64,000 nt of DNA from an uncultured Candidatus Saccharibacteria bacterium (GCA_964361825.1 CAYICB010000001.1:30644-94643); one strand, 5' to 3'; counted from the first letter of the stretch, positions 15,106-53,652 are shown. Notes: a model not told the origin generated them from the letters alone. Numbers and translations: made by a program.

Positions 15106-15120
15106 AAGATTTTACCCGTT

Positions 15121-15474: not shown

Positions 15475-15480
15475 AGAGAG

Positions 15481-15961: not shown

Positions 15962-15973
15962 AAGGTATCAGTA

Positions 15974-19391: not shown

Positions 19392-19480
19392 AACTCACTG
19401 GCAAAGTCGAATTCCATACCCGCATTCTAGTGTTTTTAGAGACAAAATCCAGCCGAAAAATCCCCCATGTTCTTTTCCCC

Positions 19481-36933: not shown

Positions 36934-36989
36934 TTTGATAAGAGCAACTTGGTTGCCAACCAAACTTTTTTGAGTTAGGATGTAAGACC

Positions 36990-37124
36990 ATGTCATTCAC
37001 TTATAAACCAAAGAAACGCAAACGCCGAACCACTCACGGTTTTTTGGTCAGACAAAAAAGCGCTACTGGTAGGAAAGTTCTTCGTGCCAGACGCCGCAAA
37101 GGACGCCACAAGCTTTCGGTTTAA
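36990..37124 (+). CDS. rpmH: 50S ribosomal protein L34
   Basis: Translated by hand: [44 protein letters not shown]. Not in the ORF track because it is under 60 aa. Confidence 0.85.
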
Positions 37125-37127
37125 GCA

Positions 37128-37472
37128 ATGTTGCCAGCTAAAAATCGGCTTAACCGCGGCCAAATTAAGGAAATTATGGTTCGGGGGCGGTCTTTTTTTT
37201 CTGATCACCTTACTTTTCGTTATGCTCCATTAGGAACAGGTCAGTTGAGTGGTTTTGCCGTGGTGGTGGCCGCTAAGTGGGCCAAAAAAGCCAACGAACG
37301 AAACAAAATCAAGCGATTGATCAAGGTGGTTTTAAGAAATCTCTTGCCCCAAGTAAAAGCCGGTTGGGGTGGGGTCATTTTTTTGAAAAAAAGCGTAACC
37401 CCGGTAACATTAAGGGGTTTAGAAACTGAAGTGAAGCAATTAATTTATCAAACTCCTTTATTTTATAAATGA
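37128..37472 (+). CDS. rnpA: ribonuclease P protein component
   Basis: MLPAKNRLNRGQIKEIMVRG... Confidence 0.85.
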   Translation: MLPAKNRLNRGQIKEIMVRGRSFFSDHLTFRYAPLGTGQLSGFAVVVAAKWAKKANERNKIKRLIKVVLRNLLPQVKAGWGGVIFLKKSVTPVTLRGLETEVKQLIYQTPLFYK

Positions 37473-38221
37473 AATTTATTTATCAGCAGATTTTTTATCT
37501 CCCCCTCTACAACCTTTTGGCTTTTTTGGCCGAAATGGTGCCAACCCACAATCTTGGTCTCGCGATTATCATCTTAACTTTATTGGTTAAACTGGTCTTG
37601 TTTCCGTTTTATCATAAGACACGGAAAATTCAGCTTAAAATTAAGGCGATTGAACCAGAATTGAAGAAGATCAAACAAGAAAATGCTGGTAATAAGCAGG
37701 CCGAAGCCTTAAAAACGATGGCTTTGTACCGTGAGCACGGGATTAGCCCATTATCTGGGTTCGGTATTATGCTAATTCAGCTACCGATTTTGTTTGCTTT
37801 ATATGGTGTTTTTCGCGAAAGCTTGGCTTTTGATCCCAACCTCCTCTATTCATTTGTGTCTGCCCCAGAAACAGTTAATCATGTTTTGTTTTTCATTGAT
37901 TTAACTAAAGCCAGCTATATTTTGGCAATTTTGGCGGGAATTACCCAGTTTGTGCAAGTAAAATTAGCTTTGCCCGGTACTCCCCCCGCCGACCGCAACG
38001 GTGATGGCAAAACCACTTTTAGTGAGGATTTGGCCCGAAGCATGAATGTCCAAGCCAAATATTTTTTACCAGTAATGATCACCTTGTTTTCTCTTGGTTT
38101 ACCCGGAGCAATTTCTCTTTACTGGGTGGTTGGCAATTTATTTATGATTGCTCACGAACTCTTGGTGAAACACCGAGCTAAGGTGGCGTTTACTGCTCCC
38201 AACTTAAGCTCCACAGTGTAG
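37469..38221 (+). CDS. yidC: membrane protein insertase YidC (short form)
   Basis: Conserved TM1 with K (LLVKLVLFPF) and a 60KD_IMP core. Confidence 0.85.
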   Translation: MKFIYQQIFYLPLYNLLAFLAEMVPTHNLGLAIIILTLLVKLVLFPFYHKTRKIQLKIKAIEPELKKIKQENAGNKQAEALKTMALYREHGISPLSGFGIMLIQLPILFALYGVFRESLAFDPNLLYSFVSAPETVNHVLFFIDLTKASYILAILAGITQFVQVKLALPGTPPADRNGDGKTTFSEDLARSMNVQAKYFLPVMITLFSLGLPGAISLYWVVGNLFMIAHELLVKHRAKVAFTAPNLSSTV

Positions 38222-39392
38222 CGTCTGGCCGATTTTGGAAGATTAAACGATTTTCGGCTGGATTTAGGCTCAAACGCGAAGCATCGAGGTTGTTTTGTAA
38301 ACCAAAAACGGTAGAAGTTTCAAAAATGAGGTAGCTCTCGCCGGTGTCGGTATTGATTTGCCAAAAATTGTCTTGCCAAGCAATTTCGCCGCGGTAATAA
38401 GCATCTGGTAGCGGGAGGGGGCTTAATTTTGTTGGAACCGCACAGTAAATTAATTTAGAATCGTTCGTCCAAACACACTTTTCGGCCAAAGTTTGAATGC
38501 CCAATAAAGTGATTTCATTGGTATTTAAGTTAAGCAAACTTAGATTTAAGCCAGCCCCGTTATTGTGGCTATATACTAGCTTGGTGCCGTCTGGACTTAA
38601 GTGGCCAGTTAAGCCAAATGAACCGCCGATTAAGCGAGTGAGTTTGCCGGTGTTTGGATCTAGGTTATAGATTAAACCGGCATAATTGGCCGCCGGCTTA
38701 GTATTTAAAAGGATTGAGCTATTGGTGGGCCAAGACACTAGCCATTCGCTTACCCCAGCGCGAAAGATAACCTTTTTGTTTTCAGGTTTTTGCCAATCTA
38801 AAACTGAACCAATTGCCCCGTCCCCCACTTTCTCTAGGAGGAAAACCTTTTTTTGATCTGGAGACGAAGCGAGAGCAATTAAATTGGGTGAAATTATATT
38901 GCCCGTGCTACTAAGTAAAACTTGACCTCCCGTCTCGGGTTTAATGGCCCAAAAATCAATCGTACTGGTGGCGCCGAGGAAAAATTTAGCCTCGGTTAAG
39001 CCGGGCGCGGTGTAATTGCTTAGGCGGGTGGCCGCATTATTGAGCAAATCTTTCTCATACAAATGGCCGGTAGCTTTATCAAGATAATAAATTTTACTCG
39101 TGGTGGAGCCTTGGTTTAGCTGAAAATCACTAATAGGAGTATCGAGGAGACGATTTAAGCCTTGGCCAAAACTCTGATTGACTAAACTTTCACCAAAACC
39201 GGGCGCTAAAGACTCTTCTGCGGAAGAGTTATTTTCCCCAGTGTCGACCGGAAAGAATTCATCGATGGTGGGTAGATTTGGCGCCGGTGTGGGAGCAATT
39301 TCTCGGTTTTGATAAAGCCAGAAGCCAATTAAGCCAGCGCTTAAAGCGACAAGGATAATGATAATCGTGAGAATTTTTTTAACCGTGCTCAT
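38190..39392 (-). CDS. membrane-anchored periplasmic protein with TolB/PD40-like beta-propeller repeats
   Basis: N-terminal TM and repeats such as LSPDGTKLVYSHNNG. It is the last gene of the T4SS-like operon. Confidence 0.4.
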   Translation of the reverse strand: MSTVKKILTIIIILVALSAGLIGFWLYQNREIAPTPAPNLPTIDEFFPVDTGENNSSAEESLAPGFGESLVNQSFGQGLNRLLDTPISDFQLNQGSTTSKIYYLDKATGHLYEKDLLNNAATRLSNYTAPGLTEAKFFLGATSTIDFWAIKPETGGQVLLSSTGNIISPNLIALASSPDQKKVFLLEKVGDGAIGSVLDWQKPENKKVIFRAGVSEWLVSWPTNSSILLNTKPAANYAGLIYNLDPNTGKLTRLIGGSFGLTGHLSPDGTKLVYSHNNGAGLNLSLLNLNTNEITLLGIQTLAEKCVWTNDSKLIYCAVPTKLSPLPLPDAYYRGEIAWQDNFWQINTDTGESYLIFETSTVFGLQNNLDASRLSLNPAENRLIFQNRPDATLWSLSWEQ

Positions 39393-40462
39393 TTGGGTAA
39401 AATAAAGTTTAGATTGACCAAATTAGGATTAATTTGCTGGAGAATAAGGTAAGCCGCTAGAGCGAGGATAATCCCCTTTAAGATTTCCCATAAACGATCT
39501 TTGGCATCGGTTTTTACCCCCGGAAGAGGGTTAATGGTGTATTGCACCCCCTTCCATACAATAGTGATGATGGCAAAGAGTCCAAGGAGTCCAACGGCTT
39601 GTTTGAAAAGCGCTTTTAAATAGTCTGGTAAATTAGCGATGGGAGTGGAGCCCGTGGCGCCAATCACACCCGGTTCCAACACATTTACCCCACCCACCTC
39701 TTGGGCTAAGGCCACTGGGAGAAGTTTTGGCCAGAAAGAGAAACCATCATTACCAAATTCAATTTGGAGATCACGGGCCGCTTCTTGATTGCTAATCGCT
39801 TTGTTTTTTATCCGCAAGTTTACTGGCGCCACGCCTTCTTTGCCAGAACGATTTTGCAGGATAACCGTGCGGCCGTCTTCGGAGCTGGGGGTAGCTAATT
39901 GGTTATTGATTAGCCAAGAGAAAGCCACTTGGCCACTAGCTAAATTGGCGAGAGAAAAAAAGTATGGTTCGGCGATTAGGGAAAAGGTGTTTTCTGGCAA
40001 ATGCCAAGTGTCGGGTATGGCTAAAGCATAATTTGGTCCAAGCAAGGGTTCGGTTGGGTAAATTAGCGCTTTGGGGCTAACGAGCGATAGATTGAGAGTT
40101 TGTTTGAGCCTAGTTTCTCCGGTGGGCGTTTTGACCTCTACCGTAATAGCATTGCTACCAGTATTGCCGGCGCGGTAAATTAAACTATTTTTGCCTGTTC
40201 CGGAATTGGCGGGTAAATTGTAACCGTCTTTTTGCCAAGTGTAGATTAGGTTTTCTGGTGCCAAATTGGCAATTTGAGCTAGGGCCACCACCTTAACCTC
40301 GCTTTGGCTCGAAGGTAGGGCTTTGCCTCGATAACCTGTGGGGGTGTAAGTTCGCGCTTCCCAGAGCAGGTCGACAAAATTATTGTTTGGCGCTGACTGG
40401 GCTTGAGCGCTGGGAATGAGGGTGATGAGGCTAAACCCCAGGCTTAGAAGAAATTTTTTCAT
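39389..40462 (-). CDS. secreted protein with C-terminal double-TM hairpin (possible T4SS pilin/TrbC-like domain)
   Basis: Signal peptide MKKFLLSLGFSLITLIPSAQA and two C-terminal hydrophobic helices (GLLGLFAIITIVW, GIILALAAYLIL). Confidence 0.35.
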   Translation of the reverse strand: MKKFLLSLGFSLITLIPSAQAQSAPNNNFVDLLWEARTYTPTGYRGKALPSSQSEVKVVALAQIANLAPENLIYTWQKDGYNLPANSGTGKNSLIYRAGNTGSNAITVEVKTPTGETRLKQTLNLSLVSPKALIYPTEPLLGPNYALAIPDTWHLPENTFSLIAEPYFFSLANLASGQVAFSWLINNQLATPSSEDGRTVILQNRSGKEGVAPVNLRIKNKAISNQEAARDLQIEFGNDGFSFWPKLLPVALAQEVGGVNVLEPGVIGATGSTPIANLPDYLKALFKQAVGLLGLFAIITIVWKGVQYTINPLPGVKTDAKDRLWEILKGIILALAAYLILQQINPNLVNLNFILPK

Positions 40463-40787
40463 TTAATTTTTTTAAGGCTGGCATTCGATCTTCTAATTTT
40501 ACCATAACTATTAGACCAATAACGCCAGCCGTGATGGTGGGTAACCAGCTGACAAAGGGAATAAATTCTAAAACGGCACTGGTGGCGGCGGTGGCCAAAC
40601 GCCCGGGATGCATAAAACTGGCGCCCCGGAGGTAAAACCATAAGGAAAAAGTTAACCAAGCAAATAAACTGGAGACAAAATTGACTATTGGCACAAAACT
40701 AAGTAAATCAAAAAATAAAGCGACACTAATGAGAAAAAATCCCTGAAGCCAGTCGATGCGGGTTTTCTTTTTGGCGTTTTCGTCCAT
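40431..40787 (-). CDS. small polytopic membrane protein
   Basis: Three TM helices. Overlaps neighbouring genes. Confidence 0.4.
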   Translation of the reverse strand: MDENAKKKTRIDWLQGFFLISVALFFDLLSFVPIVNFVSSLFAWLTFSLWFYLRGASFMHPGRLATAATSAVLEFIPFVSWLPTITAGVIGLIVMVKLEDRMPALKKLNEKISSKPGV

Positions 40788-40790
40788 AAC

Positions 40791-42623
40791 TTAGGGCGTT
40801 TTGGGCTTATCTTCGGTACTAAGTTCGAGCTCTTGTTTGGCCTTTTTGATGGCGAGGAGTTGCGAGGGATCCGAGGTAATAATTTGGTCTTCGGTATAGG
40901 AGGCAATAATTTTGATCGCCACATGTTTGAGGCCGGCGAAAAAGATTCCCTCCCCCACATTACTCTCGAGAAGTAAGAATTTTTCTTCATCAGTGAGTTG
41001 GAAGGTTTGCTGAACCAGATCGATGGAGGCCGGCGACTGCTTGAGCAAGAGTTGGATGGAAGAGTTGGTGATGATTGGTAGGCCATATTCTGAACGCAAG
41101 AAATCCCCCACATCTTGTGTGATAGTGGCCACGCCGAGATAATATTTACGCCCGCGCTTAACGAGCGAGAAGAGGAAGGAGGCGGTATCGGGCGCCTTCA
41201 TCATCCACCACGCCTCATCAATCACTAGCAAGCGCTTTTTTAGATTTCGTCTGATGGAGTTCCAGATATTATGCATCACAATATACATCGCCACCGGCTT
41301 GAGCTCATCCTCCATGTCGCGCACTGAGAACACCACAAACTTTTTATTAATATCCACATTGGTGGGTTGATTGATGAAACCGGCCCAAGTGCCTTGAGTA
41401 TATTTGAGCAAGCGTTGCGCCAGCGGCGCCCCACCCTCCATGCCAGCGAGCACCAACTCCAGATCCGAGAGGAGGGGCGCTGGTTTATTACCAAAATTAG
41501 AATCGGGGGTAATATCTTTGAGGGCATAGGTTTCGGTAATCGCGGCGTCTAAAATAGCGTCCTCCTCGCTCGTGAGACCGCCGAGCATAATTCTAAAAAG
41601 GCCCACCAAATTGATGATATTAGAACGCAAAACATCGGCCGGCGACTCATCTTCTCTGGGGTAAGGCAAGTCGAAAGGGTTAATGTGGTGCTCGGAAGTG
41701 AGCGAGATATTGAAATAGCGCCCGCCAACCGCCTCGGCCAAAAATTCGTATTCTCGCTCGGGGTCAATGACGATAATGTCGGTATCAAACATCAGCGAGC
41801 GCAAAATCTCTAACTTGGTGGCATAAGATTTGCCCGAGCCCGATTTGGCAAAAATCACCGAATTGTAGTTCTCGAGGGAAAAGCGGTCGAAGAGTACGAG
41901 CGAAGAATTGTGGCGGTTAATGCCGTATAAAATACCCTTGTTGGAAGTAAGATCGAAGGAAACGAAAGGGAATAAGCTCGAGAGGGGCGAAGAGTTAAGC
42001 TTATAATTAATCTCTAACAGATCTTGAGAGACAGGCAAAACACTTTTGAAGCCCTCCGCTTGTTGAAATAGGGCGGGTTTGAGGTAAACCAGCTTGGCGT
42101 CGAGAATTGACTTGACCTCGGTCTCGGTTTTGTCGAGCTCATCCTCGGTTTCGCCATAAATGGTGATATATAGCCCGACGTCAAAGATCTTTTCCCGCGC
42201 TTGCTGGAGGGAGTCGCGTAGACTCTCGATATCTTCGTAAGCGGTATCAAGAATGGGGTCGCGCACCATCCCCTTACCCTCCTTGATACTGATTTGGCTT
42301 TGGACTTCGGCCACCTTTTTCTCTAATTGCTTGAGGGCGATTGAAGTATCAATGGGGTGGATGAGAATAGAAACATCAAAGATTTTGTCCAGATTGATAA
42401 CGGGCGAGAACCAATCACCGGCCAAAAATCGGGGGTAAGAAATTACGAAAAAGGTGCGCGCCAGCTTATCGCCCAAATTGAGGACTCGGGGCGTAATCTT
42501 AAGCGCCGAAGGCGCAATAATATCGCGGAGCTCCAGCACGCCCAATTCATAAATATCTTTGGGTAAAACGGGTGATAAACCCACTTTTTCCTCGGTTTTT
42601 TTGCCAAAATTAAATAAAGCCAT
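40791..42623 (-). CDS. VirB4/TrbE/PrgJ-family T4SS ATPase, C-terminal (ATPase) part
   Basis: Walker A FAKSGSGKSY and Walker B LLVIDEAWWMM. Confidence 0.8.
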   Translation of the reverse strand: MALFNFGKKTEEKVGLSPVLPKDIYELGVLELRDIIAPSALKITPRVLNLGDKLARTFFVISYPRFLAGDWFSPVINLDKIFDVSILIHPIDTSIALKQLEKKVAEVQSQISIKEGKGMVRDPILDTAYEDIESLRDSLQQAREKIFDVGLYITIYGETEDELDKTETEVKSILDAKLVYLKPALFQQAEGFKSVLPVSQDLLEINYKLNSSPLSSLFPFVSFDLTSNKGILYGINRHNSSLVLFDRFSLENYNSVIFAKSGSGKSYATKLEILRSLMFDTDIIVIDPEREYEFLAEAVGGRYFNISLTSEHHINPFDLPYPREDESPADVLRSNIINLVGLFRIMLGGLTSEEDAILDAAITETYALKDITPDSNFGNKPAPLLSDLELVLAGMEGGAPLAQRLLKYTQGTWAGFINQPTNVDINKKFVVFSVRDMEDELKPVAMYIVMHNIWNSIRRNLKKRLLVIDEAWWMMKAPDTASFLFSLVKRGRKYYLGVATITQDVGDFLRSEYGLPIITNSSIQLLLKQSPASIDLVQQTFQLTDEEKFLLLESNVGEGIFFAGLKHVAIKIIASYTEDQIITSDPSQLLAIKKAKQELELSTEDKPKTP

Positions 42624-42625
42624 AA

Positions 42626-43261
42626 TTAATTGCCACTGGGCATTGAGGCCTCACCCGGATTAAAAATTTTGAAATAAAGCTCCACTAACTCCTCGGTGCC
42701 GAGAGGGATAGCGCGGATGCCAAAACGCCCTAAACCTTGTACTACCACCCCAGCGCGTTGCTCTAGCTGGGTGCGTCGCTCGAGGAAGAGGTCTTGCTCG
42801 GCGGTGGCAGTTTTGGGCTGGCGACCGGGCAAGAAGGAAGCCAGAAAGCCTTTTTTGGTGACATCCACAATAGGTGGATCATAAGGCACCACTACAAAAA
42901 AGGTTTTGGTCATCACATCGGTGGTGAGGGTAAAGTTTTTGATAAAATCGATGTATTCTCTGGTTTGGATTTGGAGTAATTCATTGGTTTGCTCTTTAGC
43001 CCGATCTTGAAGGGTCATTAAATAGGGCTTAATATCGAGCTTGCGCGATTGGATAAAGAGCTGAATTTGGAAGTCGAGCGAATTTAAGAAGTTTTGATAT
43101 TGGAGAATGGTCGCCTCCTTCTCGTCCTCACTTTTTAAGGCAAAGTTGAGAGCCGAAGCGATAAGAACGAGGCGGAGAGAATTATTTTTGAGCACCACTA
43201 CCCCGTCGCGGATCTCGCGAATGGGGACAAAATCTTGCGTGGGCTCGGCAACTTTGGCCAT
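42626..43261 (-). CDS. VirB4-family N-terminal domain encoded as a separate ORF
   Basis: VPIREIRDGVVVLKNNSLRLVLIASALNFALKSEDEKEATILQYQNFLNSLDFQIQ resembles the VirB4/TraC N-terminus. It ends TAA-TT-ATG, 2 nt before the ATPase ORF. Confidence 0.5.
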   Translation of the reverse strand: MAKVAEPTQDFVPIREIRDGVVVLKNNSLRLVLIASALNFALKSEDEKEATILQYQNFLNSLDFQIQLFIQSRKLDIKPYLMTLQDRAKEQTNELLQIQTREYIDFIKNFTLTTDVMTKTFFVVVPYDPPIVDVTKKGFLASFLPGRQPKTATAEQDLFLERRTQLEQRAGVVVQGLGRFGIRAIPLGTEELVELYFKIFNPGEASMPSGN

Positions 43262-43280
43262 GCCAATTATTATACCGCGT

Positions 43281-43688
43281 TTATTGGATTTTTTCTCTCA
43301 CATCGAGACTCCAAGAGAGGTCGCGCAACCGACTTTGGGATAATTTGGGAATCTTGAAGCCGGTCGCTCCCTCGCTCCCGAGGACAATCTTTTTCCCCAC
43401 GGCCGTTTTCTCCTTGCGCTTCCAGATATACAGCTTTTTGGTAAACAGGTAACGGAAAGCGGCTTCGGTAACCTTAATAAACGGCTGATTATTAACTTTA
43501 TAAAAAGCGAGGAGGAGGCCGAAGGCCACGATAGCGAGAATCAGGGGCCAAGCGATGAGGCGAGGCAAATAGGTGTAGAAGATAAAGGCGCCACCGAGTG
43601 AGCCAGCAATATACACAAATTGCTTGAAGGTCAGCGGACCGAAAATCTTGTCTTCAATCTCAATAAATTGTGGGACTTGGAAGTTCAT
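43281..43688 (-). CDS. PrgI/VirB3-like small membrane protein
   Basis: VPQFIEIEDKIFGPLTFKQFVYIAG followed by two TM helices, directly upstream of VirB4. Confidence 0.5.
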   Translation of the reverse strand: MNFQVPQFIEIEDKIFGPLTFKQFVYIAGSLGGAFIFYTYLPRLIAWPLILAIVAFGLLLAFYKVNNQPFIKVTEAAFRYLFTKKLYIWKRKEKTAVGKKIVLGSEGATGFKIPKLSQSRLRDLSWSLDVREKIQ

Positions 43689-43738
43689 GTTAGAAGGTTA
43701 AAAGGCAAAAATCAAAAGGCAAAAATTTAAGTTAAAAT

Positions 43739-43978
43739 TCAAAATTTTTGACCCTTCAATTTTAACACACCAGCCGCTAACATGTTGGCCAACTCGCGCA
43801 CCTCGACGATTAAGGGGTTCACTTTTTCGCCCAAAACTAATCCCGCATCTCTTAGTAAATTTAACCAGTAAACAGTTTCATTGGCGCTTTTTAGCGAAAT
43901 TTCGTAAAATTTTTTGAATTCTAACCGGGAGCATCTTTCTTTGAGATCACTTTTGGCTTTTGAATTGTAATTTTGCAT
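43739..43978 (-). CDS. four-helix-bundle protein (TIGR02436 / Avd superfamily), 5'-truncated
   Basis: 79 aa matching only the C-terminal half of the family (ETVYWLNLLRDAGL...). Confidence 0.45.
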   Translation of the reverse strand: MQNYNSKAKSDLKERCSRLEFKKFYEISLKSANETVYWLNLLRDAGLVLGEKVNPLIVEVRELANMLAAGVLKLKGQKF

Positions 43979-44024
43979 TTTGACCTTTGACTTTTGAGTT
44001 GGTCAAAGCGCCACTGACAAAAGC

Positions 44025-44540
44025 CTACTTGGCCGGCTCTCGATACGGGTCCGTGGTCGCGGGGCTCGCTTGGGGTGGAATTGGCGCTTGGGTGGCGAGA
44101 TGATCAAGATCGACCTCCTCGCGCGGCACGCGGAAGAGTTTGCTCATTTTCTCATTGAAGATGGTGGCCGAAGCCGGCGCCTTGAGCGGTTGACTAACCG
44201 AGCTCGGCTCGCTGGGCGTAGTGCTGTGGACCTTCTGCAGGGATTCCCGAATCTTGAGAAAAATCTCTTGATTAACTTCAGTCACTATCGCTTTTATCTC
44301 TTCACCACTAATCCCCGGTAAGGCCTTGATTAATCCCTGTTCGTAACTCGCTACAGGGTTAATTCCGATTAAAACGAGGGCCGTTTGATCGGCCAGCTCG
44401 CCAATTTGGTCTAAGTGGAGTTTGTGGTTCAAACCAATTTCCCCTATTGCGCCATCGAGATCAAGATCCCAAATCGCCGCCTTAATATCCTCGGGTAAAC
44501 CCATAAACTTTTTTGCTAATTGTTCGCTATTGTGTTCCAT
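44025..44540 (-). CDS. hypothetical protein
   Basis: 171 aa with a Pro/Ser-rich C-terminus. Confidence 0.4.
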   Translation of the reverse strand: MEHNSEQLAKKFMGLPEDIKAAIWDLDLDGAIGEIGLNHKLHLDQIGELADQTALVLIGINPVASYEQGLIKALPGISGEEIKAIVTEVNQEIFLKIRESLQKVHSTTPSEPSSVSQPLKAPASATIFNEKMSKLFRVPREEVDLDHLATQAPIPPQASPATTDPYREPAK

Positions 44541-44543
44541 AAA

Positions 44544-46820
44544 TTATTTTTTGTCCTCTTTTTTCTCCCCCTCATCTTTTTTGTCTTCTTTCTTGTCCTC
44601 ATCTTTGTCGAGATTGAGTTCTCGGGCCATGCGATTTACTACTGTGAATGCACTATCCAATTCTTTTTCTTCATCAGGTGAGAGAGTGCCCGCTTTTTCT
44701 TTTGATTCAAGACGGCGAACAGTTTCCATTGCCTTGTCGAATTTCTTTTCGTTGCTCTTTTTTCTGGCGTCTTTATCAACCGATTTTTGTCGGTTTTTTT
44801 CAATCTCTTCCTGTTGGCTGGCCGATAATCTAGATTTGAATTCTTCCACAACCTTGCTAAGATGCCGATATTCTTTTTCGGCTACGCCTTTTGTTTTCTC
44901 GTCTTTTGGTGCCTTGGTTCGCGCCTCTTCTAGCTTCATCATTTCAAATACTGCTTTACGATACTTTCTCATGCTTGATTCGTTTTCTGTTTTTAGACGA
45001 TCGGTTTCAGGTGTATTGGCATACCAATTAAGAATGTCAGTATGTTTGCGGGTAGCGTCTTGAATTTCTTGCCACAACTGATCTTGAGTTTTAATCCCTG
45101 TTTGGGCCTTGTTGAGTGCGGCCTCCATTTTTGCTTGATTTACAGCTCCAAGTTGGCGATATGCTTGTTGTTGAATATAGTTACCTAATAATGGTTTTAC
45201 TCCCAAGAAGCCTTTGCCAGCAGCTTCGATGTATTTTGCTTTAGATTCCTCGGTCTTCAGTTCTTTGGGTGGTTTGGACATTTTTTCTGTTACTTCCTTA
45301 AAACTTTCTTTGCCACCAAACATGGCCTTTGTTCCCTTTTCGGCCAAGGGTTTAAACAAGTTGGCTAAACGAGGACTGGTAGTCATCATGCGGGTAATCC
45401 AGCCACCTTTATCATCCTTGTTTCGTGTTTCTTCTGCGCGAATTGCTTCTGCGCTCCAGCGACCAATGGTGGCACGGCCAATTGCAGATGGAACATAAAT
45501 TCCAGCCCCTTTTGCTGCTCCGATTCCCCAATCCTTCATTTTTTTCCCATACCCCACTACGGTGTTGGCGCCGAAGGCGCTAAGTTTAACCGCTGCAATT
45601 AGCGAGCCGATCATTAGGCCAACCACAATGGCAAAATTGAAGATGAGACCGAGCCAGTTGCTCTCTTTGTTTTCTGATAATCGCTTAATGATTCCCGTGT
45701 CGAGGATGGTGATTGAGGAATAGATGAACAATATATATATTGGAGCAAAGAATGATTGGTTCAGGAGTTTGTCCCACCAATCTTTAAAGTATTTTTCCAT
45801 GTTAGGCATAGCCCGTGCGAGGAAAGCCAGAGGAGAGATTACAATCAAAAAGACTAAGTAAACCGAACGAATAAGCAAGAGAACTGCCCCGGCTAAAAGC
45901 GTAAAACTAATAACTAAGCCAAGAACCACATTGCCGAAAATCCTAATCAAGACTTCTATTGGACTACCGTCCTTAAGGGTAAACATCTCTGTAGTAAAAT
46001 CAGAGTTTCGGAGAAAAGTTCCGGCTACCCCCTTTTGGGCTATGGGTTCATAAAGCTGGGCCGCGGCGATATTGGCCACATCAATTACGGCACGGGCCAA
46101 AAAGGCACTAAAATTGATAAACAGAGCACTAATAATTACAGTGATAATAATCCTTTCTTTATTATTGACCTTAAGATCAAGAATGAAGGCGGCGGCCACA
46201 TAGAGAAGAATAAAAATAAAGAACAGGTTGGCAAAATCTCGCAAAGTAGACCACGCTAGAGTTACTCCCGGGTCATTTACAAAGGTTCCAATTTTTTTAA
46301 CCCCAAAATCCAAAGAATAACCAAAAACCCCACCGGCAACTTTTACAATCCCGGCGGTAATTAGTGTCAACACTTCTCCAATAATGCCGAGGATTAAGTG
46401 AAAACCTCGTGTCACACAGGCCGTAAGATTTGTTAGACCACAGTTGTCTTCGTCTTCTGACGCACTTTTGATATCCTCATCTAGGGTTTTACCGTCATTT
46501 TTTGTTTTACTTGTTAGACTAGCAAGTTCGGCTTCTAGTTCCGACCGTCTTTCGTTAGAAAGGGTTGATGGCAACGCGTTGAGCTGTCTTTCAATGTCTT
46601 CTTTGCGATGTATGTCTCGCCAAATAGCCTTTTCCCTTTTATATAAAACGTTATATTCATCCTCAGTAATTTCTCCCTGGTTAAATTTTTCTGTCAGTAT
46701 GTTCAAGGCCTCACTTTCGGTTGATTGAGAAAAGGTTTGTTTAATATCAAATACTGGAAAAATCGAAATTATTATAACCAAAAGTATTCCTAGGGTTATT
46801 TTTTTCCAGTTTTTCATCAT
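44544..46820 (-). CDS. polytopic membrane protein, VirB6/TrbL/PrgH-like, with charged coiled-coil C-terminal tail
   Basis: About 8 TM helices in the central region and a Lys/Glu-rich C-terminus. Confidence 0.45.
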   Translation of the reverse strand: MMKNWKKITLGILLVIIISIFPVFDIKQTFSQSTESEALNILTEKFNQGEITEDEYNVLYKREKAIWRDIHRKEDIERQLNALPSTLSNERRSELEAELASLTSKTKNDGKTLDEDIKSASEDEDNCGLTNLTACVTRGFHLILGIIGEVLTLITAGIVKVAGGVFGYSLDFGVKKIGTFVNDPGVTLAWSTLRDFANLFFIFILLYVAAAFILDLKVNNKERIIITVIISALFINFSAFLARAVIDVANIAAAQLYEPIAQKGVAGTFLRNSDFTTEMFTLKDGSPIEVLIRIFGNVVLGLVISFTLLAGAVLLLIRSVYLVFLIVISPLAFLARAMPNMEKYFKDWWDKLLNQSFFAPIYILFIYSSITILDTGIIKRLSENKESNWLGLIFNFAIVVGLMIGSLIAAVKLSAFGANTVVGYGKKMKDWGIGAAKGAGIYVPSAIGRATIGRWSAEAIRAEETRNKDDKGGWITRMMTTSPRLANLFKPLAEKGTKAMFGGKESFKEVTEKMSKPPKELKTEESKAKYIEAAGKGFLGVKPLLGNYIQQQAYRQLGAVNQAKMEAALNKAQTGIKTQDQLWQEIQDATRKHTDILNWYANTPETDRLKTENESSMRKYRKAVFEMMKLEEARTKAPKDEKTKGVAEKEYRHLSKVVEEFKSRLSASQQEEIEKNRQKSVDKDARKKSNEKKFDKAMETVRRLESKEKAGTLSPDEEKELDSAFTVVNRMARELNLDKDEDKKEDKKDEGEKKEDKK

Positions 46821-49800
46821 CGTGTGATTGTGATTTCTCGGGTGATTTCTTGATTATTGCCCGCTAAGCACTTGATGCCATAAGCGAGTTTAGGAGTCAC
46901 GGAGATAAAGGCGGAGGTATTGGTGGTGCCGTAGATAAAGTCATACCGCCGCAGGGCTCGACCCAGTTCCGAGTCGGCGGTTTTGGTGGCCTCAATTTTA
47001 TCACGCAAGAGCTCGACAATTTTAGCCTTGGTGCGCTCGGGGTTAGTATTTTCGCCACCGGCGAGCAAAGTGGTATCACCTCCTAGGCCACCAAAGGTAA
47101 TTTGATAACTAGCATCCTCGCTAAGACTGCCGCTTGGGGTATAGGTCCAGCGCTCGGCCAAGAGATTGGGTAGCGCGGTTTTAAGCGAGAAGAGGAGGTC
47201 GGTATCCTCATTTACTAAGCGCTCAATCTTTAGGCTGGCGGTGAGGGGGTGAGCAATGGTGTGACTTCCATTTAGTTCTACCTCATCACCCTTGGCCACT
47301 AGCACCTCATTTACCGAGAGCCAATCATTATTAGCCTGGCAATAATTCGCATTGGCGGAGTTCCAAGCCAGATTAGAGAGATTTGGTGTTCCCCCACTTA
47401 CTGCCGCGAGGTTGGGAGTATTGAAGCCAAATTCGAGGCCAATTCTTGCCAAGACTGGGCCCGTAATTGGATTGTCGATCAAATCATCTAAACCAACAGT
47501 ATTTAAGGTGTTGAAGCTCGTATTATCGTAGTAATTATAGGTTCCCGAGCTCAAATTTGGTGGAGTGCGGGGTGTTGTGGGATCATCGCTAGTAATTGGG
47601 ATCGCGCCGCCAAGCGAGGGCGGTAAATTATTTCTCGACACAGGTAAATTACTGTCAAAAGCTTGCCGGGGTTGCGGGTCAGAGAGGCGGGGGCAAGGTC
47701 CAGTGCCCGGGCAAGGATTCGGAGTCTGGAAAACACTTTTATAATCACCGGGGCTGGCAATCGCGGCGCCTAGATTAGCGGTTTTCTGGATAGAATTATT
47801 GAGATCAAATTTGGCGGCATCCTCTTTTAGCCCCTTAGCATTAAGGGTTTGATCTACGGGCAAGGTGGCCAATTTGCTAGCTTGGTCGCGGATCACTGAG
47901 GGCGGAGTGGTAATGGTCCAACCATCGCAAGTCCAAGTGCCATTGGGGAGCTGAATTTTATTTGCCTCCGGGCAGGTTCTGGTGCCCAAATTACCATCAC
48001 CCCAAGCGGCTTGTTGCATAATGCTTCCGGCGGCGGCACTTCTTTCTTCGGCCACAATTCGATCTAATTCCACCGCCGCGAGTAGGGGGTTAAGCCCTTT
48101 GTGAGCCATAAAGTTATAATTTGCTTCCGGGTCGAAGGCGCTTTTGCCATCCAGACTCCCGGTTTCTTTAAAGTTTTTTATTTGTTCTGGGGTATAAGGT
48201 GAGGCGAAGATATTTTGATTTTGTTCTGCATCTCTGGCGGCTAAGGCTTGGCTCAAAGCGGGGTAAAGCGCCGGATTCTCGGCCACCGAGTTTCTAAATT
48301 TTTGGACCACGGCCGCCTCTCGTTCGTCTGCTGCCTCGGCCGCCAGCTTTTCGGGGTCAGAAACAATCAAGGGTTGAGTGTTTTCTTCTCCAAGGGTCGG
48401 TACGCTGGTGGTAAAAGAGGAGGTTTCGAGACCGGTTTGCAGGAGATCGGCCATTTGATCTTGCCAAATTGCTAAAGCGCGACCCGATTCCATAATCGCA
48501 TTGGGATCATTAACGAAGGTTTTTTCTTCCATCACAAAGAGCATTCTTCTTACCGCCTTCACATGGGTACAGGCTTGGAGCTCAAGTAAGACCAGTTTTT
48601 CCATCATCGCTTTAATTTCGGCCGTGTTTTTAACAATTTCTCCGGTATTTTTTTGCGTTCCTTGACTAACAGAAAGGAGAGATCCAGCCTCATTAACTGG
48701 CACGGTTAAGGCACCAGCGCCGCCAAGGCCAAAGCGATTCATCACTTCTTCCATGGCGCGTTTGGTGAGGTCGGTAACAATAGCTTGAGCCATGGGATTG
48801 CCCTCAAACATTGAGCCGGCCAAACCACCAATGACCCCCACGGCACTACCAGCCAAACCTTTAGCCAAATTACTAGAAAAATTGGTTAAACCAGCGGCGG
48901 CGCCATTCTTAGCAACATTATTGGTAATCACATTTTCGGTCACAGCTGGTGCGGCCGCAGTTACCTCTTGACCAGTGGTTTCGGCAAAGAAGGCCGATTC
49001 GTCTAAGGCTGGCGTGGGAGTATTGGGGTCAATATTATTAACATAGGCATCGTAATGGATTTCTCCCGGTCCGCGGATGGCATCATTGGGAATAATACGG
49101 ATATCATTGGCTTCGGAAACCTTCACTTGATTTGGCAGGAGTGGGCCATAGGTATCATCCGCCACCACCTCTACTCTAGGTGGAGGGAAAACGGCATCGT
49201 GTAAAGAGAAGCCAACTTTGTTGATTCCATCAGCGATAAAATTACCGGCGGCGAAAGCATTATTGGTAACACCCGCGGCAAAGGGGTAAAGAGTGGCGCC
49301 CACGGTGTCATCAATACTTTTGGCGATGCTATCTCCCACATGGTCAATAATAATGGTGGTGGGAGTAGTGATGGCGGCGATGGCCACATTTAGCTGGAGA
49401 TCAACGGCATTTACAATCGGGTTAAGAAATTGCTCATCCATGGTATTGATGGCCTTCTCCACCGCTCCGAGTGGTCCCACTAGATGGTCCATCGCCTTAT
49501 CGATTGAGTTTTCTAGAGAATTATTGATTGGTTTTTCGATGGCATTCGCAATGGCGTCGGCCAGCTTAGAGATATTTTTGGGATCAGTCATTGACTGCTC
49601 CAGTTGGAAAGCAAAACCATTAACCAACTCATCGGTGATTGCCTCTCTATTGGTTGTTAAGTAGGCGGCCCATTTGAAAAACTCAATTGTTTCTTCGGCT
49701 TGCGCTTTTAAATTCTCAATCATCCCTAAGATTTCCTCGCCAGTTTCTGGGAGAGAGGCTAGACCGAGAACCGTGCCGATGATCTGATTTAGAAAATCAG

Positions 49801-50713
49801 GTACGAAGGGAATATTGGCCGAAGAGAAAGATAGCCCCACATTTTGAATTGAGGCCTTAATCCCATCAATCGTGGCCCTGAAGGTAGCCACCAAGGTTTC
49901 CACCTGATCCACTGCCATTTGGGGGATTTCTAGTAAAACGGTGTTTATCTCGGCTCTATAGTAGGTTTCGATGGTAGGTTTAGCGATTTCGTGGAAGTTT
50001 AACTTTAGATTCTCTTGGAGATTATCTCGCAAGCCATGATTAACTGATTCGGAAACCTTCTTTTTGATAAATTCTTCATTTAAAACGCGGGGCCATGACT
50101 CTCTGACGGAATCGGTTACTAATTGACGAAATTGACCACGATCCCTAAGCATTTCTTCGGTCACTCCTTGCTCGCGGAAGGCTTGGAGCTTTTCGGCCAA
50201 GGTTTTTGGTACTTCTTCTTTAAGCCTTTCGGTCATACCAGTCTGGATTCCCTGACGCAAATGCCCCTCGATTGCCGGGGCCGCGCTAGTGGTTACAGCA
50301 TTAACCGTTTTTGGCATCACTTCCATTCCCACCGCTTCATTAATAAGGTTTTTAATCGGTTTTTTGAAGGCGGTTTCTGCCACTGCTTGACCATAGGTGG
50401 CTGGTTTTTTGCCCTTCACCTCTATTTCGCACTGTTTTTGATCCTCTTCGCGCCAAGCGCCCAAAATTTCTTGAGCGCTTGAGGAGTCACCGGCTTTTTG
50501 GGGTGGACGAAGCAAGTTTTTGGTGTCCAGTTCGCCGATATTTGGGGTGGGGGTAGTTTGTCCCAAAACTGAAGCCCGAGTGCGTAGTCCACCTGAATTA
50601 GGTAAACCAGCAAATTGGGCTGAAGCGCTAAGCGGAGAGAGCAAGTTGGCGGTAAGCAGGCTTAAAATTAAGCCTCGAACCAAGTAGTTTTTTGTTTGAG
50701 GATTTAATTTCAT
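46817..50713 (-). CDS. giant secreted protein (1298 aa) of the T4SS-like operon
   Basis: Signal peptide MKLNPQTKNYLVRGLILSLLTANLLSPLSASA and no recognisable catalytic motifs. Confidence 0.55.
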   Translation of the reverse strand: MKLNPQTKNYLVRGLILSLLTANLLSPLSASAQFAGLPNSGGLRTRASVLGQTTPTPNIGELDTKNLLRPPQKAGDSSSAQEILGAWREEDQKQCEIEVKGKKPATYGQAVAETAFKKPIKNLINEAVGMEVMPKTVNAVTTSAAPAIEGHLRQGIQTGMTERLKEEVPKTLAEKLQAFREQGVTEEMLRDRGQFRQLVTDSVRESWPRVLNEEFIKKKVSESVNHGLRDNLQENLKLNFHEIAKPTIETYYRAEINTVLLEIPQMAVDQVETLVATFRATIDGIKASIQNVGLSFSSANIPFVPDFLNQIIGTVLGLASLPETGEEILGMIENLKAQAEETIEFFKWAAYLTTNREAITDELVNGFAFQLEQSMTDPKNISKLADAIANAIEKPINNSLENSIDKAMDHLVGPLGAVEKAINTMDEQFLNPIVNAVDLQLNVAIAAITTPTTIIIDHVGDSIAKSIDDTVGATLYPFAAGVTNNAFAAGNFIADGINKVGFSLHDAVFPPPRVEVVADDTYGPLLPNQVKVSEANDIRIIPNDAIRGPGEIHYDAYVNNIDPNTPTPALDESAFFAETTGQEVTAAAPAVTENVITNNVAKNGAAAGLTNFSSNLAKGLAGSAVGVIGGLAGSMFEGNPMAQAIVTDLTKRAMEEVMNRFGLGGAGALTVPVNEAGSLLSVSQGTQKNTGEIVKNTAEIKAMMEKLVLLELQACTHVKAVRRMLFVMEEKTFVNDPNAIMESGRALAIWQDQMADLLQTGLETSSFTTSVPTLGEENTQPLIVSDPEKLAAEAADEREAAVVQKFRNSVAENPALYPALSQALAARDAEQNQNIFASPYTPEQIKNFKETGSLDGKSAFDPEANYNFMAHKGLNPLLAAVELDRIVAEERSAAAGSIMQQAAWGDGNLGTRTCPEANKIQLPNGTWTCDGWTITTPPSVIRDQASKLATLPVDQTLNAKGLKEDAAKFDLNNSIQKTANLGAAIASPGDYKSVFQTPNPCPGTGPCPRLSDPQPRQAFDSNLPVSRNNLPPSLGGAIPITSDDPTTPRTPPNLSSGTYNYYDNTSFNTLNTVGLDDLIDNPITGPVLARIGLEFGFNTPNLAAVSGGTPNLSNLAWNSANANYCQANNDWLSVNEVLVAKGDEVELNGSHTIAHPLTASLKIERLVNEDTDLLFSLKTALPNLLAERWTYTPSGSLSEDASYQITFGGLGGDTTLLAGGENTNPERTKAKIVELLRDKIEATKTADSELGRALRRYDFIYGTTNTSAFISVTPKLAYGIKCLAGNNQEITREITITR

Positions 50714-51573
50714 AAGCCTAAAGAGAGATTGGCCCCTTCGTTTTCATTAAACACCAGACCATTGGCCATCAAAAAGAAGTTTAAATTATTGATGGCCGTA
50801 AAAAATCCTTCTAATTTTGTGGGGTGGAGTTCGGCGGCGGCCAAGGCAATGGCAGGTTCACTTTCTATTTGGGCCATAAGCAGAGAGTTTTGCGTTAGGT
50901 TGGTGATGGCATTTACCAAATTAAGATGATTTTGGGCGGCGGTTTGAGGAATGGCGAGGTTGAGTAGAGTCTGTGAGGTGTTTTTGTAAGCCGTAACGCG
51001 CTCTTCTAGTTTAGTTAAAGTTTGATTTTCGCCGTTTTCAATGAAGTTTAGAGCCAGAACAAGCTCATTTTCTTCGCCGGTTGGCCAAGATTGACGCATA
51101 ATCTCGGCTACTTCTAAGCCGTAAGCTCTAATTTGTGGTTGGGTGGCGGAAGAAAGGAGGTGTAAATCACTAATTTGGTAGGTAGTTTGTTTGGGCCAAA
51201 AAACCTCGGAGTTGATTAATGGGGCTTCTCTGTTTTGCGAAGCCTCATGAACTTGGGCTAAAAGCTTGGCATTAACTTCTAGCGGCTGATTGGTTGATTG
51301 GCTCGGATCTCGTCCTAAGCTCACTTCGGCCCCATCTGCCACCCCGTCACCATCGGAATCTGGTTTATTAGGATTAGTGCCCCAGAGGGTTTCTTCCCAG
51401 TCTGCCAATTTGTCTTGATCTTGATCGGTGGGTTTAAATTTAGCGAGGGGCGGAACTTTTTTGGTCATCAGGAAATTGTTTTCTAGTTTTGGCGCGGAGC
51501 GGCCACCAATAAACCACAGCGACCAAACACTGATCACTACCATTAGCCCTAGCCCCACCACGAGCTTCTTCAT
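50710..51573 (-). CDS. hypothetical membrane-anchored protein
   Basis: N-terminal TM helix. It is the first gene of the operon and overlaps the next by 4 bp. Confidence 0.45.
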   Translation of the reverse strand: MKKLVVGLGLMVVISVWSLWFIGGRSAPKLENNFLMTKKVPPLAKFKPTDQDQDKLADWEETLWGTNPNKPDSDGDGVADGAEVSLGRDPSQSTNQPLEVNAKLLAQVHEASQNREAPLINSEVFWPKQTTYQISDLHLLSSATQPQIRAYGLEVAEIMRQSWPTGEENELVLALNFIENGENQTLTKLEERVTAYKNTSQTLLNLAIPQTAAQNHLNLVNAITNLTQNSLLMAQIESEPAIALAAAELHPTKLEGFFTAINNLNFFLMANGLVFNENEGANLSLGL

Positions 51574-52076: not shown

Positions 52077-52433
52077 ATGAATAAAATCACCATTTTTTCT
52101 TTATTTCTGGCGGCGGGATTAATTTGGGCCGCTTGGCTTTACCGTCCACCGGCAGTAGAAGCGATCGGTTTTTTGCCGATTGGGGGGAAAATTGTGAATG
52201 TGACCCCGTGTTGCAACGGTTTAATGTTGACCTTAGCTGGTCCGCGCCCCGGTAATTATATGTATTATTATCAAACCTCCATTCTTTTGCCTTATTTCAA
52301 CATTTTTGTTCCCGGACCATCAGTGCTGGGTCGGGGTTTGCCCGGTGGAGTGTGTCAACCAATAGCCACTGCCTGTATTACTTCGATCCCCACGGTGGGG
52401 TCTTTTGTTAGCGTGGGGACTTCTAGTTTTTAA
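52077..52433 (+). CDS. hypothetical secreted protein
   Basis: Signal/TM segment IFSLFLAAGLIWAAW, and Cys-containing. Confidence 0.35.
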   Translation: MNKITIFSLFLAAGLIWAAWLYRPPAVEAIGFLPIGGKIVNVTPCCNGLMLTLAGPRPGNYMYYYQTSILLPYFNIFVPGPSVLGRGLPGGVCQPIATACITSIPTVGSFVSVGTSSF

Positions 52434-52839
52434 CCTGATCGCCGATTTTTAGATTGTTTTTTTCCGAGAAACCGGCATTTACTTCTAAGACATATTTCAC
52501 CGGCGAGGGTGGAAAGAAAAGTTGCGGATAAGTTTCGGGGGCGAGATTTTTTTCGATGCCGATAATTTTCCAATTTTCGTCGAGCCAAATAATGTCGATT
52601 GGGAAGAACATATCTTTCATCCAAAAATTTGGGGTAGTGACGGTGGGGAAAATAAAAAGTAAGCCAGTGTCTTGGGCGAGGTTTGTTCTGTCAGACAAAC
52701 CTTGAGTTCTTTCTATTTCAGTATCGGCGATTTCGATTTGAATAATTTTTCCGCCAATTTCTAATTGTGGTAGTGAAACCTTGGGTGCGGGGTTAATAAA
52801 ACCAAGAGCGATTAAGATCGTGAGAAAAAATTGTTTCAT
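52423..52839 (-). CDS. DUF192 domain protein
   Basis: Signal peptide plus a GLSDR...GLLFIFP...FWMKDMFFPIDIIWLD pattern. Confidence 0.6.
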   Translation of the reverse strand: MKQFFLTILIALGFINPAPKVSLPQLEIGGKIIQIEIADTEIERTQGLSDRTNLAQDTGLLFIFPTVTTPNFWMKDMFFPIDIIWLDENWKIIGIEKNLAPETYPQLFFPPSPVKYVLEVNAGFSEKNNLKIGDQVKN

Positions 52840-53612: not shown

Positions 53613-53652
53613 GTGTGAAACATTGTAAAATAAGGCTAAAATGTGAAACAAA

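Follow-up and report, generated by a model that had tools for sequence, protein, structure and literature searches.

The 64,000-nucleotide (nt) stretch of DNA analysed here (the window) comes from an uncultured Candidatus Saccharibacteria bacterium (GCA_964361825.1, CAYICB010000001.1:30644-94643) and carries an operon of about 13 kb that, judged by its gene content, encodes a genuine type IV secretion system (T4SS). This operon runs from 51573 to 38190 on the minus strand, positions being numbered across the whole stretch, and would be a typical member of a kind of system already published for the Patescibacteria. Its attribution to the T4SSs relies on a VirB4 ATPase with intact Walker A and Walker B motifs, accompanied within 6 kb by co-directional genes for PrgI/VirB3, a TrsD-like protein, a VirB2-type pilin and a VirB6-like candidate. 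From the parts that are present, we propose as a working model that the system is probably a vertically inherited patescibacterial machine serving contact with host cells and not conjugation.

The open reading frames (ORFs) of the operon, in the order of transcription, with product lengths in amino acids (aa), are:

50710-51573, minus strand: gene 1, 287 aa, N-terminally anchored exported protein with TSP3 Ca2+-binding repeats (Pfam TSP3_bac, 2.7e-6)
46817-50713, minus strand: gene 2, 1298 aa, secreted giant protein with a Sec-type leader and no transmembrane (TM) segment
44544-46820, minus strand: gene 3, 758 aa, polytopic 'extended VirB6'-like candidate (hydropathy, composition, weak TrbL/VirB6 matches)
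44025-44540, minus strand: gene 4, 171 aa, soluble, presumably cytoplasmic, conserved part of the locus (hydropathy, synteny)
43739-43978, minus strand: ORF 5, 79 aa, N-terminally truncated gene for a 23S-rRNA-IVP/bAvd-like four-helix bundle (Pfam PF05635, 5.4e-10)
43281-43688, minus strand: gene 6, 135 aa, PrgI/VirB3-type small membrane protein (Pfam PrgI, 4e-11)
42626-43261, minus strand: gene 7, 211 aa, TrsD-like protein, the detached N-terminal domain of VirB4 (NCBIfam, Pfam, hhalign)
40791-42623, minus strand: gene 8, 610 aa, VirB4 ATPase without the usual N-terminal domain (Pfam, PDB, NCBIfam, hhalign)
40431-40787, minus strand: gene 9, 118 aa, small polytopic membrane protein with 3-4 hydrophobic segments (hydropathy)
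39389-40462, minus strand: gene 10, 357 aa, apparent fusion of an Ig-like part and a pilin (Pfam T4SS_pilin, hydropathy, comparison with relatives)
38190-39392, minus strand: gene 11, 400 aa, anchored, exported TolB-like beta-propeller (profile against PDB, NCBIfam)

The preliminary description of this DNA had read the region as a Gram-positive-type T4SS-like operon of eleven co-directional, mostly overlapping ORFs. All eleven are present on the minus strand between 51573 and 38190, and their packing is indeed tight; the extent of overlap was slightly overstated, since only four junctions overlap (by 4, 4, 32 and 4 nt), three others having gaps of 2-3 nt and three of 19-50 nt. Profile searches for VirB4 and PrgI, chosen beforehand as the point on which the reading could fail, are both significant, the PrgI match lying above the Pfam gathering score. 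The 1298-aa giant does carry the leader expected of a secreted protein, the secreted protein with a C-terminal double-TM hairpin proves to be the 357-aa product, whose hairpin is a T4SS_pilin/VirB2-type domain, and the PD40-like periplasmic protein holds as a membrane-anchored, exported TolB-like propeller. For the protein described as VirB6-like, the polytopic layout stands and the family assignment is weakly supported. The 'several small membrane proteins' reduce to PrgI and the 118-aa product, the 171-aa and 211-aa products being devoid of hydrophobic segments. Overall, five of the eleven products have a Sec leader or anchor. The operon is bordered on one side by a divergent TIG-domain gene; on the other, yidC is convergent with it, and the 3' end of yidC runs 32 nt into the last gene. 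A promoter and terminator scan of the operon gave counts at or below shuffled expectation and is uninformative.

Comparison with relatives used a scan of one genome per GTDB species, which yielded 80 loci with VirB4 identities of 74-87%. The operon is kept gene for gene in most of these 80 species-level relatives, and therefore far beyond chance.

The 610-aa VirB4 matches P-loop_TraG (1.3e-25) as well as AAA_10 and DUF87 in Pfam, and its best solved relative is PDB 4ag5, the VirB4 of a Gram-positive thermophile (2.9e-41), followed by R388 TrwK. Its top NCBIfam model is NF045971, 'VirB4-like conjugal transfer ATPase, CD1110 family', at 360 bits against a cutoff of 325. The ranking places CD1110 (Clostridioides) first and the VirB4 of Mycoplasma integrative and conjugative elements (ICEs) second, with the F-type and VirB4_CagE models lower; the closest families are thus those of Firmicutes/Tenericutes (monoderm, MPF_FATA-type), in keeping with the Gram-positive label. 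Its Walker motifs, A at residues 259-266 (AKSGSGKS) and B at residues 465-470 (LLVIDE), do not vary among homologues. PrgI, encoded two genes upstream, scores 43.7 bits in Pfam against a cutoff of 27 and is found in 77 of the 80 loci at about 50% identity.

Between PrgI and VirB4, the 211-aa product, for which the preliminary description gave no name, is found in 79 of the 80 loci at about 55% identity. It matches the N-termini of NCBIfam VirB4 models (NF045975 positions 102-233, 1.8e-8; NF045971 positions 2-102, 1.3e-4) and TrsD itself at 3.7e-4, significant though below the cutoff, and its precomputed Pfam call is PF26593, TraC-like. The unsplit VirB4 of 783 aa from the Clostridium perfringens plasmid NZ_CP143494.1 serves as a reference. 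The profile of TrsD-like orthologues aligns to its residues 22-195 (hhalign, probability 89%, E 2.2e-6) and the profile of the 610-aa ATPase to its residues 210-755 (hhalign, E 1e-56). The two adjacent genes therefore tile a complete monoderm VirB4 between them, and by this tiling VirB4 is split into a TrsD-like N-domain and a 610-aa ATPase. The TrsD-like profile finds nothing among PDB sequences; with hhalign it finds nothing in the lineage's own 610-aa VirB4 either, which fits an ATPase without the N-terminal domain.

An identical VirB4 is annotated at NCBI as 'MAG: DUF87 domain-containing protein [Patescibacteria group bacterium]', from contigs of 0.1-um-filtered Hainich groundwater. The best 120 homologues listed are 80-100% identical, and those with a taxon in their source name all bear names of Patescibacteria or candidate phyla (e.g. 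Vogelbacteria, Nomurabacteria, Paceibacterota). Judged by these names, the window would come from a Paceibacteria-type member of the CPR. Across relatives, VirB4 identity ranges from 74 to 91%. Matches to VirB4 are found on 1,904 plasmids, in which Bacillota genera dominate, and the nearest plasmid VirB4s listed, from Bacillota and Actinomycetota, are at most 35% identical. Judged from family scores and plasmid matches, the system appears to be derived from monoderm MPF_FATA conjugation machinery, without the DNA-processing genes. It shares with MPF_FATA the kinship of its VirB4, the PrgI-type VirB3 and TrsD; it departs from it in having a VirB2-type pilin domain and in the VirB8-like and VirB1-like hydrolase parts, which are not recognised in the operon. 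Similar departures are reported for patescibacterial systems (PMC12102498).

The position of the operon on the chromosome is equally constant. Its flanking genes in the window are:

34251-35348, minus strand: dnaN (downstream flank, Pfam)
35554-36996, minus strand: dnaA (downstream flank, Pfam)
37128-37472, plus strand: rnpA (downstream flank, Pfam)
37469-38221, plus strand: yidC (downstream flank, Pfam)
52423-52839, minus strand: DUF192 gene (upstream flank, Pfam)
52836-53651, minus strand: ksgA/RsmA (upstream flank, Pfam)
53653-55563, minus strand: UvrD-type helicase gene (upstream flank, Pfam)

With A, B and D as position letters, the order ksgA-(DUF192)-A-B-VirB6-like-D-PrgI-TrsD-VirB4-(118-aa)-Ig-like-pilin-propeller-yidC-rnpA-dnaA-dnaN recurs in the 80 loci with small variations, and ksgA lies upstream of the operon in 43 of the 80, as it does in distant relatives. 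The succession from ksgA through the operon to yidC-rnpA-dnaA-dnaN is likewise kept in relatives beyond these 80. In one distant relative (L093:1826-4909), the UvrD helicase gene upstream of the T4SS carries an intein (Hint/Intein_splicing).

Cumulative GC skew is lowest at about 35.5-37 kb, and the dnaA-dnaN spacer contains two DnaA boxes (35389-35397 and 35543-35551). A replication origin is thus probably located beside dnaA, which places the operon, about 1.2 kb from dnaA, next to it. As inferred from the skew, the operon would be transcribed toward the origin, head-on to the replication fork. For an operon that is so conserved and presumably well expressed, such an orientation is unusual; the relative gene order is the same in relatives.

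Genes for DNA processing were sought in all window ORFs of at least 250 aa outside the operon (Pfam scan or precomputed call) and in about 6 kb of additional flank from sister contigs. Within these approximately 70 kb, neither a relaxase family nor a VirD4/TcpA-type coupling protein (T4CP) was detected, and no integrase adjoins the operon. The absence of VirD4 and relaxase from the window, which the preliminary description had asserted, is thus borne out for ORFs of that size, and the extra flank did not contain the relaxase or VirD4 whose presence just outside the window would have signalled an ICE. The only recombinase is a XerC/D-like tyrosine recombinase (62020-62880), 10 kb off and among housekeeping genes (rpsO, CCA-adding enzyme). 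The GC content of the operon, 0.445-0.481 per 2-kb interval, is within the range of the rest, and there is no break at its borders. Because the position is fixed from ksgA to yidC-rnpA-dnaA-dnaN, and because relaxase, T4CP and adjacent integrase were not found, the locus is best read as a fixed, vertically inherited chromosomal machine and not as an ICE.

Within this stable frame, the proteins differ widely in their conservation. Compared with the nearest relative that has a long contig (L091), identity is 91% for VirB4, 80% for DUF192, 76% for DnaA, 73% for PBP1, 70% for the TrsD-like protein, 68% for PrgI, 58% for both YidC and DnaN, 57% for the 171-aa protein, 49% for the pilin, 42% for the Ig-like part, 37% for the propeller, 34% for the giant protein, 33% for the VirB6-like protein and 31% for the anchored Ca-binding protein, the 118-aa protein not being detectable. 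The same gradient is seen across twelve relatives. Between related genomes, VirB4 is more conserved than DnaA, DnaN, YidC, KsgA and PBP1 (86-91% versus 62-76% for DnaA). These identities indicate that the motor is under stronger constraint (purifying selection) than the replication initiator, and that the parts outside the membrane change fast.

Among the exported parts, the 357-aa protein combines a Sec leader, two Ig-like beta-sandwich modules at about residues 23-243 (nt 39734-40396) and a pilin hairpin at residues 282-342 (nt 39437-39619). The hairpin matches Pfam T4SS_pilin at 5.6e-5, just below the cutoff; several orthologous pilin-domain proteins score above it, and two also match TrbC/VirB2. 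The Ig-like assignment of the N-terminal part is weak, being suggested by recurrent low-scoring matches in the family (to BiPBP_C in 15 of the 35 proteins scanned, and also to Ig and PKD) and by the beta-strand content of an AlphaFold2 model from a two-sequence alignment, which has a mean predicted local distance difference test (pLDDT) score of 44.5 and is too poor for a fold search. In PDB, the profile of the family retrieved only an Ig domain, at E 0.03.

In the 80 relatives and in the nearest relative, separate genes encode the Ig-like protein and the pilin, adjacent in most, with no other fused ORF; their products measure about 240-350 aa and about 100-180 aa, respectively, the pilin being larger when fused to other domains. 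The stop codon of the first gene in relatives L007 and L009 aligns to TGG (Trp244) at 39731-39733, and a relic of a shortened pilin leader, WPKLLPVALAQ, is visible between the Ig-like part and the hairpin. The junction is identical in three independent assemblies, and by comparison with the relatives the fusion appears to be lineage-specific. Other fusions occur in relatives, in which the pilin domain is joined to YkuD L,D-transpeptidase or NlpC/P60 (L056:12779-13726, L059:12860-13948, L076:12871-14616), and 53 of 75 pilin-domain proteins of relatives have at least 200 aa.

The 400-aa propeller is the last gene before yidC in 65 of the 80 loci. A profile of 27 orthologues retrieves TolB for all of its top 12 matches in PDB (best 5.5e-5), NCBIfam propeller_TolB is matched at 2.4e-5, and the protein has a hydrophobic segment at residues 7-25 and invariant cysteines C306 and C317. 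At the other end of the operon, the 287-aa protein has a hydrophobic segment at residues 4-22 and thrombospondin-type-3 repeats at about residues 46-126, above the Pfam cutoff, together with NCBIfam CglD/MtsD repeat matches; the fold of its C-terminal domain is unassigned. Its profile matches in PDB only the Ca-binding regions of Bap and calmodulin, and a homologue is found at the same position in 34 of the 80 loci.

The 1298-aa giant gives no match of note in Pfam, NCBIfam or PDB; a match to a type III translocon (E 0.011) was taken as noise. A word-indexed search finds homologues in only two relatives, at 39% and 34% identity, the latter on the same 716-kb contig as the VirB4 of 91% identity. 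The slot directly upstream of the VirB6-like gene ('position B') is filled in nearly all relatives, by proteins of 323-1353 aa, and an iterative hidden Markov model, seeded with the five large members, connects 52 of the 60 ORFs in position B. Compact members share a core of some 230 aa, which contains paired cysteines and motifs such as WINSGFxGxP, PQNNxYGAY and TPGxxI; in the giant, this core corresponds to about residues 640-1010 (nt 47684-48796), and its clearest motif is found at residues 900-956. On these profile links, the giant appears to be a divergent and greatly enlarged representative of a large, uncharacterised family. Clusters of the family number 5,416 at E<=1e-3, of which 2,307 reach E<=1e-30 (HMMER, 1.84 billion cluster representatives), and the only source names found for it are 'hypothetical protein' and, from a Magasanikbacteria metagenome-assembled genome, 'F5/8 type C domain-containing protein'. 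Distant members share the slot between ksgA and the VirB6-like gene, and some bear discoidin, Ig-like or fn3 tails. Profile searches with the core retrieve no Pfam family and no PDB sequence. AlphaFold2 on a compact member (six-sequence alignment) gave a mean pLDDT of 32.9, too poor for a fold search, and a chimeric query joining the 357-aa protein to a compact member found only four matches and no deep alignment.

The 758-aa protein consists of an N-terminal leader or anchor, about six TM helices (residues 136-411) and a Lys/Glu-rich hydrophilic tail of 320 aa, a layout termed 'extended VirB6' in a recent T4SS review (PMC12857230). TrbL/VirB6 (PF04610) is the only Pfam family matched by more than one of its orthologues (5 of 25, best 1.6e-4); R388 TrwI (VirB6) is the joint-best single-sequence match in PDB, at a non-significant E of 0.26, and the Mycoplasma ICE transmembrane protein Mbov_0396 is matched at E 0.013. 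Comparison of the family by hhalign with the neighbours of PrgI on clostridial plasmids gave no significant match. The gene is located upstream of PrgI-VirB4, and the 171-aa gene and ORF 5 stand between it and PrgI. Layout and matches together make this protein probably VirB6-like.

Of the two small conserved proteins, the 171-aa product has a homologue at the same position in 44 of the 80 loci. It has no hydrophobic segment, its C-terminal DPYxE and the residues D164, Y166 and E168 are invariant in the alignment, and a Pfam scan of 25 members of its family found no recurring family. The 118-aa product is detectable at the same position in 21-25 of the 80 loci; its orthologues show no recurring Pfam family, and hhalign against clostridial PrgI neighbours found no significant match. 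ORF 5 is of another nature. It matches only positions 51-105 of the 106 in the PF05635 model, i.e. the C-terminal half, and full-length IVP copies of 120-133 aa occur at differing intergenic positions of the operon in relatives (four copies checked in Pfam: L006:8507-8866, L009:8466-8840, L015:9619-9987, L017:4351-4749). A similar-sized unassigned ORF lies between operon genes in 13 of 66 loci, and the IVP ORF is absent from the operon of the nearest relative. By these features ORF 5 is an insertion remnant and not a T4SS component, and the IVP genes behave like small selfish insertions.

From the parts list, the split VirB4, the monoderm kinship, the lack of DNA-processing genes nearby and the fixation in the chromosome, all of them observed, we infer an assembly and a role. 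VirB4, TrsD and PrgI, seated on a VirB6-like platform, would extract the pilin from the membrane, and the extracted pilin would be polymerised into a short pilus or a conduit through the cell wall. The Ig-like and giant proteins may be located on the pilus or at its tip as modules for host recognition and adhesion, while the propeller and the Ca2+-binding protein may take the place of VirB8/9/10 as a scaffold for the part that crosses the wall. Such a machine would serve contact with host cells, that is, attachment and the exchange of proteins or other molecules, and not plasmid conjugation, and the oriC-adjacent position would provide a high gene dosage.

In the function it assigns, this model is in agreement with the literature, in which host interaction or DNA uptake, and not conjugation, is the current view (PMC12102498, PMC10633639, PMC11665869, PMC12857230), the role of the system being stated as unknown (PMC12857230, PMC11665869). 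The preliminary description had likewise proposed host interaction or DNA uptake rather than conjugation, a proposal with which the genes of the locus are consistent.

Several points weigh against the host-contact model. The roles of the 171-, 118-, 287-, 400- and 1298-aa proteins are guessed from localisation and conservation. No operon protein matches the VirB8-like or VirB1-like (hydrolase) families in Pfam or NCBIfam; the VirB6-like profile is negative against PDB, and the window protein alone reaches only E 0.013-0.26. The link from the giant to the compact core depends on an iterative profile and one clear motif. Finally, only about 70 kb of the genome are covered, and VirD4-like genes are reported far from virB4 in most Patescibacteria genomes (PMC12102498); a coupling protein elsewhere in the genome is therefore likely. 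Concerning the hydrolase, a gene with LysM and Peptidase_M23 domains is present at 56576-57508 (plus strand), 5 kb upstream of the operon, and may stand in for the VirB1-type enzyme; M23 peptidase genes are also found near the uvrD-ksgA-T4SS block in two distant relatives (L092:827-1162, L093:1-352).

A more specific form of the host-contact model is offered tentatively and is more doubtful than the model itself. The position-B family, the Ig-like protein and the pilin-domain proteins might jointly constitute the host-specificity module of a pilus-bearing monoderm T4SS. The fusion would then be a 'Rosetta-stone' sign of a shared location on the pilus, the Ig-like protein would be an analogue of VirB5 or a minor pilin, and the position-B proteins might represent a Patescibacteria-wide tip or adhesin engaged in an arms race with host surfaces.

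Two other functions have been considered. In the first, which we regard as unlikely, the machine takes up DNA or nucleotides of host or environmental origin, in the manner of Helicobacter ComB or archaeal Ced, and feeds a nucleotide-auxotrophic cell. Such a role has been proposed (PMC11665869), relaxase and T4CP are not found here, as in ComB, and in class ABY1 the genes comF, recG and radA lie beside the T4SS (PMC12102498). A ComM-like gene (57505-59067), UvrD, RuvB and PolA are likewise in the neighbourhood of the operon, but DNA genes of this sort are ordinary housekeeping neighbours of an origin and owe their conservation to other causes. The local match of VirB4 to the CedB model (6.4e-9) attains 35 bits against a cutoff of 700 and is limited to the P-loop region, and no CedA-like or ComB-specific parts are recognised in the operon. 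The fast-evolving surface proteins point to a variable partner surface and not to DNA. In Southlakia epibionticum, comEC is dispensable and the T4SS essential (PMC10633639, PMC12857230), a result that is neutral, neither for nor against DNA uptake.

The second function, which we likewise regard as unlikely, is T4CP-independent export of effectors or toxins, as by Bordetella Ptl or Brucella VirB, with Sec-exported proteins (the giant, cell-wall enzymes) delivered into or onto the host. T4CP-less effector systems do exist (PMC12102498, PMC12857230), the share of operon products with a Sec leader or anchor suits such export, and so do the fusions of relatives' pilin domains to NlpC/P60 or YkuD. 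Against this, Pfam and NCBIfam recognise no toxin or enzyme domain in the exported proteins of the operon, and the position-B family, syntenic and near-universal in the locus, resembles a structural or adhesive part rather than a cargo. Effector export also overlaps with host contact and does not exclude it; indeed, both the import of DNA or nucleotides and the export of effectors overlap with the host-contact model.

The remaining explanation, an ordinary ICE with its relaxase, coupling protein and integrase just outside the window, is very improbable: although VirB4, PrgI and TrsD are homologous to conjugation proteins and a tyrosine recombinase is present at 62020-62880, that XerC/D-like enzyme is distant and in housekeeping surroundings, most related species have the locus at one and the same site between ksgA and yidC-rnpA-dnaA, window and flanks are without detected relaxase or T4CP, no compositional break marks the borders, and VirB4 is more conserved than DnaA.

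Elsewhere in the window, a diversity-generating retroelement occupies 14084-16693 on the minus strand. Its reverse transcriptase (RVT_1) lies at 14084-15067, and its 123-nt repeat pair consists of a template at 15485-15607 and a variable copy at 15990-16112, all 14 mismatches (14/14) falling at template adenines. The variable repeat is at the 3' end of an ORF of 239 aa without Pfam match (15974-16693), and a 109-aa ORF (15165-15494) is located between the template repeat and the reverse transcriptase. Further genes related to the envelope or to DNA uptake include one for a PilB-type T2SSE ATPase at 25413-27113 (plus strand) and, a little past the window's left end, one for PilM (L085:1453-2526); the ComM-like protein at 57505-59067 (minus strand) belongs to the Mg-chelatase family. 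A 42-nt direct repeat, 88% identical (18884-18925 and 19456-19497), ends in a reverse-complement start codon, CAT; two minus-strand genes may have it in common as their 5' leader or promoter.

The T4SS is among the few machines conserved across nearly all Patescibacteria, and in the one species in which this was tested it is essential to growth as an epibiont. The present locus adds no new kind of system, and its additional points are leads for follow-up: the VirB4 split revealed by tiling, the position-B family with its size and fixed slot, a TolB-like gene constantly in last place, the joining of the Ig-like part to the pilin and a conservation that falls steeply from the motor to the exported parts. 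They nominate specific proteins for structural and genetic work on the engagement of hosts by ultrasmall bacteria.

Among known systems, Bordetella Ptl, Brucella VirB and Helicobacter ComB work without a dedicated coupling protein or relaxase, neither of which was found in the approximately 70 kb here, and resemble the window system in their VirB4-, VirB2- and VirB3-type parts and perhaps in their VirB6-type part. They differ in being diderm, with a VirB7/9/10 outer-membrane core. Sequence kinship with them is confined to VirB4, VirB2, VirB3 and possibly VirB6, and the functional analogy comes from the literature only.

Closer in sequence are the MPF_FATA modules of Bacillota (CD1110/CD1115-type, pCF10 Prg, pGO1 Trs), exemplified by the C. 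perfringens plasmid NZ_CP143494.1. There too, PrgI is directly upstream of VirB4, which is 32% identical over 92% of its length, and a TrsD-type domain is present. The plasmid order is MobC-relaxase-VirD4-x-x-PrgI-VirB4 (unsplit, 783 aa)-SLT transglycosylase, with no pilin. Compared with it, the window operon is without DNA-processing genes or hydrolase; its VirB4 is split, and it encodes in addition a VirB2-type pilin and further exported proteins. Taken as the ancestral order, the plasmid illustrates what the window system would have lost and gained.

The T4SS cluster of S. epibionticum ML1 (SEML1_0006-0019), together with its pilins, is essential when the organism grows as an epibiont (Wang et al. 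2023, PMC10633639). Like the window system, it is monoderm-type, has pilin genes in the cluster and shows no recognisable relaxase or coupling protein there (PMC10633639); its low locus-tag numbers suggest a position near the start of the chromosome, as in the window. It differs in coming from the Saccharimonadia, a class other than that of the window's Paceibacteria-type locus, in an array of six pilins versus one pilin domain, and in peptidase and lysozyme genes next to virB4 (PMC12102498), which are absent from the window operon.

The closest counterpart is the Paceibacteria-type locus of Quinonero-Coronel et al. 2025 (PMC12102498). In that survey, 3,035 Patescibacteria genomes were examined and VirB4, found in 2,417, forms a monophyletic clade inside MPF_FATA; TrsD is its most abundant partner, PrgI-type VirB3, VirB6 and VirB2-like pilins are found near virB4, and there are almost no relaxases. 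The commonest neighbours of the T4SS in Paceibacteria are dnaA, dnaN, rnpA and ksgA. The window has the same arrangement, with TrsD, PrgI, a VirB6-like candidate and a VirB2-like pilin near virB4, no relaxase, and the same four neighbours, so that nothing essential differs. To the parts of that description considered here, the window adds the Ig-like-pilin fusion, the fixed slot of the giant family, the TolB-like protein as constant last gene and the IVP insertions.

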